Below are positions 46,108-46,420 of a stretch of DNA of 64,000 nt, in pieces. The position numbers and the translations under genes are program-made. The notes below the pieces were generated by a model. That model did no database searches, was not told the origin of the DNA, and saw nothing but the letters and a program-made list of their open reading frames with translations. This DNA is from Chloroflexota bacterium (GTDB taxonomy: Bacteria; Chloroflexota; Dormibacteria; CF-121), in assembly GCA_005882775.1 (NCBI GenBank), contig VBDY01000123.1, forward strand, positions 732 to 64,731, given 5' to 3'. The stretch's first letter is position 1; every line of letters starts with the position of its first letter.

Positions 46108-46420
46108 CTAGGCCTTCTTCGCCTTTTCGCGCTTGGCGCCGTACTTGGACCGGCCCTGCTTGCGCCCCTTGGCGCCGGCCGTGTCCAGGGTGCCGCGGAC
46201 CACGTGGTAGCGGACACCGGGGAGGTCCTTGACGCGCCCACCCCGGATCAGGCCGGACCCGGGCGACCTTGCGGAGAGCGGAGTTCGGCTTCTTGGGGGT
46301 GGTGGTATATACGCGCACGCAGACGCCGCGCCGCTGGGGCGAGCCCTGCAGCGCCGGCGCCTTTGTCTTCTTGAACAAAGGCTTGCGGCCAGTACGGATC
46401 AGCTGTGCAATGGTGGGCAT
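46108..46420 (-). pseudogene. rpsL: 30S ribosomal protein S12 gene, disrupted: about 24 conserved codons are missing and there is a +1 frame change after codon 56
   Basis: Frame 1 gives [56 protein letters not shown]. The S12 C-terminus [47 protein letters not shown] continues in the +1 frame. The canonical [24 protein letters not shown] segment between them is absent. The original frame has no stop and reads through into rpsG. Confidence 0.6.

Follow-up and report, generated by a model that had tools for sequence, protein, structure and literature searches.

A 71-nt gap in rpsL of a soil Chloroflexota metagenome contig is very probably a local assembly error

The rpsL gene (ribosomal protein S12) of the window, i.e., the whole 64,000-nt stretch of DNA analysed here, lacks 71 nt and is consequently split over two reading frames. 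Comparison with assembled sequences of the same population suggests that this gap is, with high probability, a local assembly or consensus error of one sequence and does not represent the actual rpsL of the organism. The latter appears to be a Dormibacterota-like bacterium from Angelo grassland soil with a single rpsL-rpsG-fusA-tuf operon and a 127-aa S12, an assignment that depends on the probable identity of the source record.

Structure of the interrupted rpsL gene

Read from the ATG at 46420 on the minus strand, frame 1 encodes S12 (M...KVARVR) over codons 1-56 (46420-46253), which are intact and identical to those of the intact population allele, and non-S12 sequence afterwards. Alignment to sibling contigs showed that 71 nt (TCACCTCCCGCCAGGAGGTGACCGCKTAYATCCCGGGGATCGGGCACAACCTCCAGGAGCACTCGGTGGTR) are absent between 46252 and 46251 on the minus strand; the absent segment extends from codon 57 position 2 to codon 80 and leaves 24 residues unencoded. 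At the junction (46251-46252, minus strand), the C at 46252 is base 1 of codon 57 and the C at 46251 is base 1 of codon 81. Codons 81-127 (...KAKKA) and the stop codon (TAG at 46110-46108) occupy 46251-46108 on the minus strand, in the +1 frame as compared to the 5' part. An earlier note on this DNA, made from the sequence alone, had described 56 intact codons, 24 missing residues and a C-terminus continuing in the +1 frame, and all three observations hold: the first in frame 1 from the ATG at 46420 through 46253, the second in the alignment with intact sibling alleles, and the third in frame 2 from 46251 as well as in the tblastn frames given below. Of the two gap sizes that it had offered (71 or 74 nt), alignment to intact contigs supports 71 nt and not 74 nt.

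Searches with protein queries and profiles gave the same picture. With S12 sequences of E. coli and Thermus as queries, tblastn yielded two HSPs, one in frame -1 (query positions 1-61) and one in frame -2 (query positions 81-118). The Pfam profile PF00164 (110 positions) was matched at positions 2-40 by the long ORF, at positions 75-109 by the +1-frame piece and at positions 2-109 by the intact population allele; profile positions 41-74 had no match in either rpsL fragment. A functional S12 gene would be recognized by a single ORF that spans the whole S12 domain (~110 PF00164 positions), and no such ORF is present at the rpsL locus of the window. The gene order of the window is that of the str operon (rpoC ... 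rpsL-rpsG-fusA-tuf), as in all population contigs, and thus represents the context expected for rpsL.

Frame 1 is stop-free up to rpsG and is, by chance, in phase with rpsG. The result, also described in the earlier note, is an artefactual 261-aa ORF (45635-46420, minus strand) that consists of 56 S12 codons, 49 out-of-frame codons and 156 S7 codons. This ORF owes its existence solely to the chance absence of stop codons from the shifted frame in DNA with 65% G+C; it is a by-product of the high G+C content, and a real S12-S7 fusion protein is not expected. An exact look-up of the 261-aa protein returned no record anywhere. The rpsG gene (45635-46105, minus strand) is intact and encodes a 156-aa S7 identical to TMG38129.1 and TMF55589.1. 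Its GTG start codon is located 2 nt past the rpsL stop codon (window 46103-46110, minus strand; TAGCCGTG); in the related species, stop and start codons overlap as TGATG.

Upstream of rpsL, a gene for a GT87/GT39-like membrane glycosyltransferase is located at 46440-47699 on the minus strand (419 aa in a Prodigal-type call; 413 aa as TMG38130.1). A GT87/GT39-like polytopic membrane glycosyltransferase gene was found between rpoC and rpsL in all population contigs. Two relatives (L001 and L002) carry a different, smaller gene at this position, one of them with a weak match to DUF2269.

Exact look-ups of proteins from the window identified GenBank entries for S10 (TMG38126.1), EF-Tu (TMG38127.1), EF-G (TMG38128.1), S7 (TMG38129.1), the 413-aa GT39-family protein (TMG38130.1), RpoC (TMG38131.1) and RpoB (TMG38132.1), all labelled "MAG: Chloroflexi bacterium". 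As these accession numbers are consecutive along the operon and none is left for S12, the record, a GenBank MAG that is probably the source of the window, has no S12 protein, which is as expected if the annotation pipeline called the frameshifted rpsL a pseudogene.

The rpsL locus in the same population and in related genomes

Look-ups via RpoC, S7, the GT87 protein and the PGAP-style GT protein identified 23 other contigs from the same population. Along up to 24 kb, their identity with the window was 98.9-99.97% (>99.7% for most of them), and the differences were mainly scattered SNPs. These contigs originated from at least three pipelines (i.e., CRIT18-1_SAMN0890xxxx IDBA-UD scaffolds, k141_ MEGAHIT-style contigs and JGI contigs) and included the GenBank MAG GCA_005881675.1 (VBFC01000146.1). 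The 71 nt are present in all 23, each of which has a gene for a 127-aa S12 with the S7 gene after it. The sibling contigs encode identical RpoC, S7 or GT87 proteins; RpoC of the window was found residue for residue on 20 metagenome contigs, and the order rpoB, rpoC, GT87-like membrane protein, 127-aa S12, 156-aa S7 and EF-G was present in 10 of the 10 loci listed in the RpoC look-up.

Window and sibling contigs are base-for-base identical on both sides of the gap, and the remaining 313 nt of rpsL are those of functional alleles, barring shared synonymous strain SNPs. Pseudogene decay (extra substitutions or indels relative to the sibling contigs) was found neither in the remaining rpsL nor in its flanks. 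In the sister MAG GCA_005881675.1 (locus L018), rpsL is intact (S12, TMF55588.1; S7, TMF55589.1), and the N-terminal 56 and C-terminal 47 residues encoded in the window are those of this functional 127-aa protein. The comparison with sibling contigs took in window positions 13,474-62,094, all of which are represented in one or more independent contigs; within these 48.6 kb, the window had no private indel other than the 71-nt gap.

The deletion junction was present in 0 of the 23 population contigs, and a 36-mer spanning it had no match in GTDB representative genomes. The same 36-mer had no match among JGI metagenome contigs either, a weak result as only one contig there matches the corresponding 36-mer of the intact allele. 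The haplotypes closest to the window, i.e., those that share its minor G at 46253 (L006 and L063, with ~99.94% identity, and L080), are all intact. An assembly or sequencing deletion was the first of three explanations proposed in the earlier note, and it is favoured here because all 23 contigs of the same population keep the 71 nt and no other assembly has the junction.

Another of these explanations was a second rpsL elsewhere in the genome. If the rpsL studied here were a true pseudogene, S12 would have to be provided by that second, functional copy, a scenario that we consider very unlikely. The 64 kb visible here are only part of a genome, and two of the 32 lineage genomes do have two rpsL loci; on the other hand, tblastn with the E. 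coli and Thermus queries found no second S12-like locus in the 64-kb window, 30 of the 32 lineage genomes have a single rpsL locus, and the nearest haplotypes (99.9% identical) are intact at this very locus. Moreover, both copies in the two-locus genomes are located in full str/S10 operon context, a pattern that points to redundant strain contigs within a bin and not to a paralogue. As the remaining 313 nt of rpsL match functional alleles, there is also no sign of relaxed selection. Overall, a second rpsL is unsupported.

The nearest S12 proteins in a large protein collection came from a soil lineage that shares a 24-residue motif. None of the GTDB representatives with this lineage motif belongs to the species of the window (all are 77-87% identical), and relatives identified by the lineage-specific pattern were mostly labelled Candidatus Dormiibacterota or "Chloroflexi bacterium CF_nn" (Angelo grassland study). 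When the window was aligned with contigs from related species (three contigs, about 84-89% identity), the 71-nt gap in the window was again apparent, and every relative has an uninterrupted rpsL ORF.

These data also bear on the possibility that a programmed +1 frameshift or translational bypass yields a functional S12, which appears extremely improbable. While a +1 shift at CGG-C would put both S12 parts in frame, the product would still be without 24 conserved core residues. In addition, the junction has no slippery heptamer, stall motif or 0-frame stop, and the frame break is not conserved, as relatives and population contigs are all uninterrupted. The earlier note had likewise stated that this is not a known programmed frameshift site.

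Some related sequences showed rpsL variants of their own. One contig of a related species (~85% identical; L004:1073-1432, JGI 3300086393, Ga0683563_0149255) has an independent 24-nt in-frame deletion in rpsL that removes QEVTAYIP, in the same part of S12, and gives a 119-aa product (P0002). Two proteins from the SRC catalogue, P0001 (SRR6266404_3828910) and P0005 (SRR5438270_89388), are odd near relatives of the S12 of the window, with no contig for either; one has an internal loss of 15 aa, and in the other, S12 is fused to the C-terminal 38 residues of S7. These two proteins occur in the SRC catalogue only, which is a protein-level (Plass) assembly, and were set aside as evidence for independent rpsL deletions, since they are most likely chimeras.

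Length differences in other genes were also observed among the population contigs. The rplO gene (L15; window 32198-32926, minus strand) encodes a long Lys/Ala/Glu-rich C-terminal tail with an 18-nt tandem repeat (AEGSTK units) at 32247-32299. The copy number of this repeat varies among population contigs (products of 236, 242 and 248 aa), which looks like a genuine in-frame length polymorphism. In L018 (GCA_005881675.1, VBFC01000146.1), 21 nt are absent in frame from the GT87/GT39 gene as compared to the window (46808-46828) and all other contigs, a difference that may be a real variant or a further local error. In L064 (13257-14138; ENA ERZ27286110 k141_224688), rpoA was called with 293 aa instead of 318 aa, although the contig is free of indels as compared to the window; the shorter call would be accounted for if the alpha-CTD region had a nonsense SNP or a sequencing error.

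Deletion junction, strain SNPs and origin of the gap

The intact allele reads ...GTC CG(G/T) CTC ACC ... GTG GT(G/A) CTG ATC CGG..., and the window reads ...GTC CGG C|CTG ATC CGG.... The junction, GTCCGGC|CTGATCC, is blunt with 0 nt of microhomology, because the base before the gap differs from the last deleted base and the first deleted base differs from the base after the gap. According to the earlier note, the junction sits between two CCGG tetramers. Both tetramers are indeed present, but they have no part in the junction: they are 81 nt apart in the intact allele and both are kept in the window. A deletion mediated by the CCGG repeat can thus be ruled out, given the retention of both motifs and the lack of microhomology. 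Relocation of the missing segment was likewise ruled out, as the segment occurs nowhere else in the window. Excision of the conserved rpsL core by a vector screen was also considered, but a by-eye check against E. coli rpsL found no long exact match.

In the alignment of sibling contigs, rpsL of this population has four synonymous variable sites within 73 nt, i.e., codon 56 position 3, codons 65 and 66, and codon 80 position 3, which form four haplotypes. Three of these four clustered SNPs are located inside the deleted stretch. The fourth, at the third base of codon 56 (46253), is a synonymous difference between strains with G or T, of which the window has the minor allele G; it lies 1-2 nt outside the left breakpoint, and the right breakpoint directly follows the last SNP (codon 80 position 3). 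The lost interval is thus the stretch in which co-occurring strains differ. This coincidence of breakpoints and SNP cluster was noticed post hoc; it is what a mis-resolved strain bubble would be expected to produce, and it favours an artefact.

Both the samples with matches and the names of the scaffolds belong to the Angelo Coast Range Reserve grassland study. In this study, each of 60 samples was assembled on its own, with IDBA-UD in every case but one (PMC6784897). From its accession numbering and sequence identity, the contig analysed here was most likely assembled with IDBA-UD as well. We propose that the junction originated in the assembler or in the consensus. Co-occurring strains in the sample would differ at the four synonymous rpsL sites within 73 nt, and the path of the assembler (most likely IDBA-UD) may have jumped from 1 nt past the first variable site to just past the last one. 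Such a jump, whether it arose from wrong resolution of the assembly path or from a consensus lacking support, would drop 71 nt and shift the frame.

Sister scaffolds from the same data set show local defects of a related kind. In the IDBA-UD scaffold L062 (7618-7630), rplF is broken by GGC, 10 Ns and GGC beside a strain SNP, and in the IDBA-UD scaffold L067 (9581-9594), secY is broken by 10 Ns and a 4-nt duplicate; the true sequence is contiguous at both N-joins. The secY site appears to be a recurrent graph break point, since two other contigs end there. In addition, a 100-N gap in L083 (17766-17865) stands for 725 nt. Essential genes of the ribosomal operons are therefore repeatedly hit by local assembly defects in this data set, which further favours an artefact in rpsL. 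Three observations weigh against this reading. A de Bruijn assembler needs a shared k-mer, so that a blunt junction would require a chimeric read, internal correction or a local-assembly step. The usual IDBA-UD scaffold error, as seen in the sister scaffolds, is a spurious insertion of Ns and not a clean deletion. Finally, the remainder of the comparable window is clean.

Some of these observations could also be accommodated by a gap made after assembly, i.e., during bin curation or submission, if a flagged or N-containing span had been excised and the ends joined. The blunt join without microhomology would fit such editing, as would the zero Ns in the window as compared to the short N runs that sister scaffolds have at strain-variable sites in essential genes. 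However, the methods passages searched in PMC6784897 describe no such step, and rpsL is intact at the locus of the sister GenBank MAG (L018). We regard post-assembly editing as highly improbable.

S12 is an essential protein with an OB-fold, of which the missing residues make up core strands. A frameshifted rpsL without 24 core residues would thus, on established knowledge, be expected to be lethal in a haploid cell, and a clonal lineage with a broken rpsL should therefore not reach assembling coverage. This consideration, together with flanks that are perfectly conserved and without decay, favours an artefact and argues against a real null allele. Such an allele, present in a minor fraction of the genome copies (in polyploid cells, in dying cells or as relic DNA) and followed by the assembler, akin to the population variant named in the earlier note, is unlikely, even though several observations would agree with it: the junction is clean and without Ns, the contig is free of other private indels over 48.6 kb and its assembly thus otherwise reliable, graph assemblers normally need some reads that contain the junction, and this region of rpsL has independently lost 24 nt in a related species (L004). 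These are set against the absence of the allele from all 23 other population contigs, the absence of its junction from two sequence collections (with the JGI result being weak) and the undecayed flanks. It is also quite unlikely that the deletion is real and reached an appreciable frequency in one soil sample, either as an rpsL-null copy beside an intact one (polyploid heterozygosity) or as relic DNA at assembling coverage.

If the gap is a local assembly or consensus error, as we consider very probable, its biological weight is small, since the organism would have a normal S12 and no unusual translation mechanism. As rpsL is a universal single-copy marker for completeness estimates and phylogenomics, the practical consequence lies with a probable public MAG record, in which rpsL is missing or would be read as a spurious S12-S7 fusion. 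The locus may also serve as a worked example of how, in soil metagenomes, local assembly defects and clusters of strain SNPs within highly conserved genes occur at the same place, and of how comparison with sibling assemblies can settle such cases without reads.

Comparison with known systems

Like an ordinary rpsL (PF00164; rpsL-rpsG-fusA-tuf), the gene in the window has conserved synteny and encodes identical N-terminal 56 and C-terminal 47 residues; unlike an ordinary rpsL, it has no one frame for the whole domain and is missing 24 residues. With +1 frameshifting of the prfB type and bypassing in phage T4 gene 60, it shares protein parts in different frames that are separated by a short discontinuity. 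In contrast to these two systems, the window has lost sequence rather than gained it and has no stall codon, slippery site or take-off/landing pair, and its interruption is not conserved, with relatives being uninterrupted.

The closest resemblance is to the local assembly errors described by Chen et al. (2020, Genome Res, PMC7111523). In the first type of such errors, the consensus is perfectly supported by not one read; in the second type, Ns are inserted although the flanks overlap, and IDBA-UD is the assembler singled out for local errors (PMC7111523). Like these errors, the defect in the window is small and isolated and damages a protein-coding gene of a scaffold that is accurate elsewhere; furthermore, the probable source of the window is an IDBA-UD soil assembly, and sister scaffolds of the same population show the second (N) type. 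The two cases differ in that the published errors are defined by read support, whereas the gap in the window is known from assembled sequences and represents a clean loss of 71 nt with no Ns. In the present case, the anomaly is private to one assembly, and the expected sequence is found in independent assemblies of the same population.
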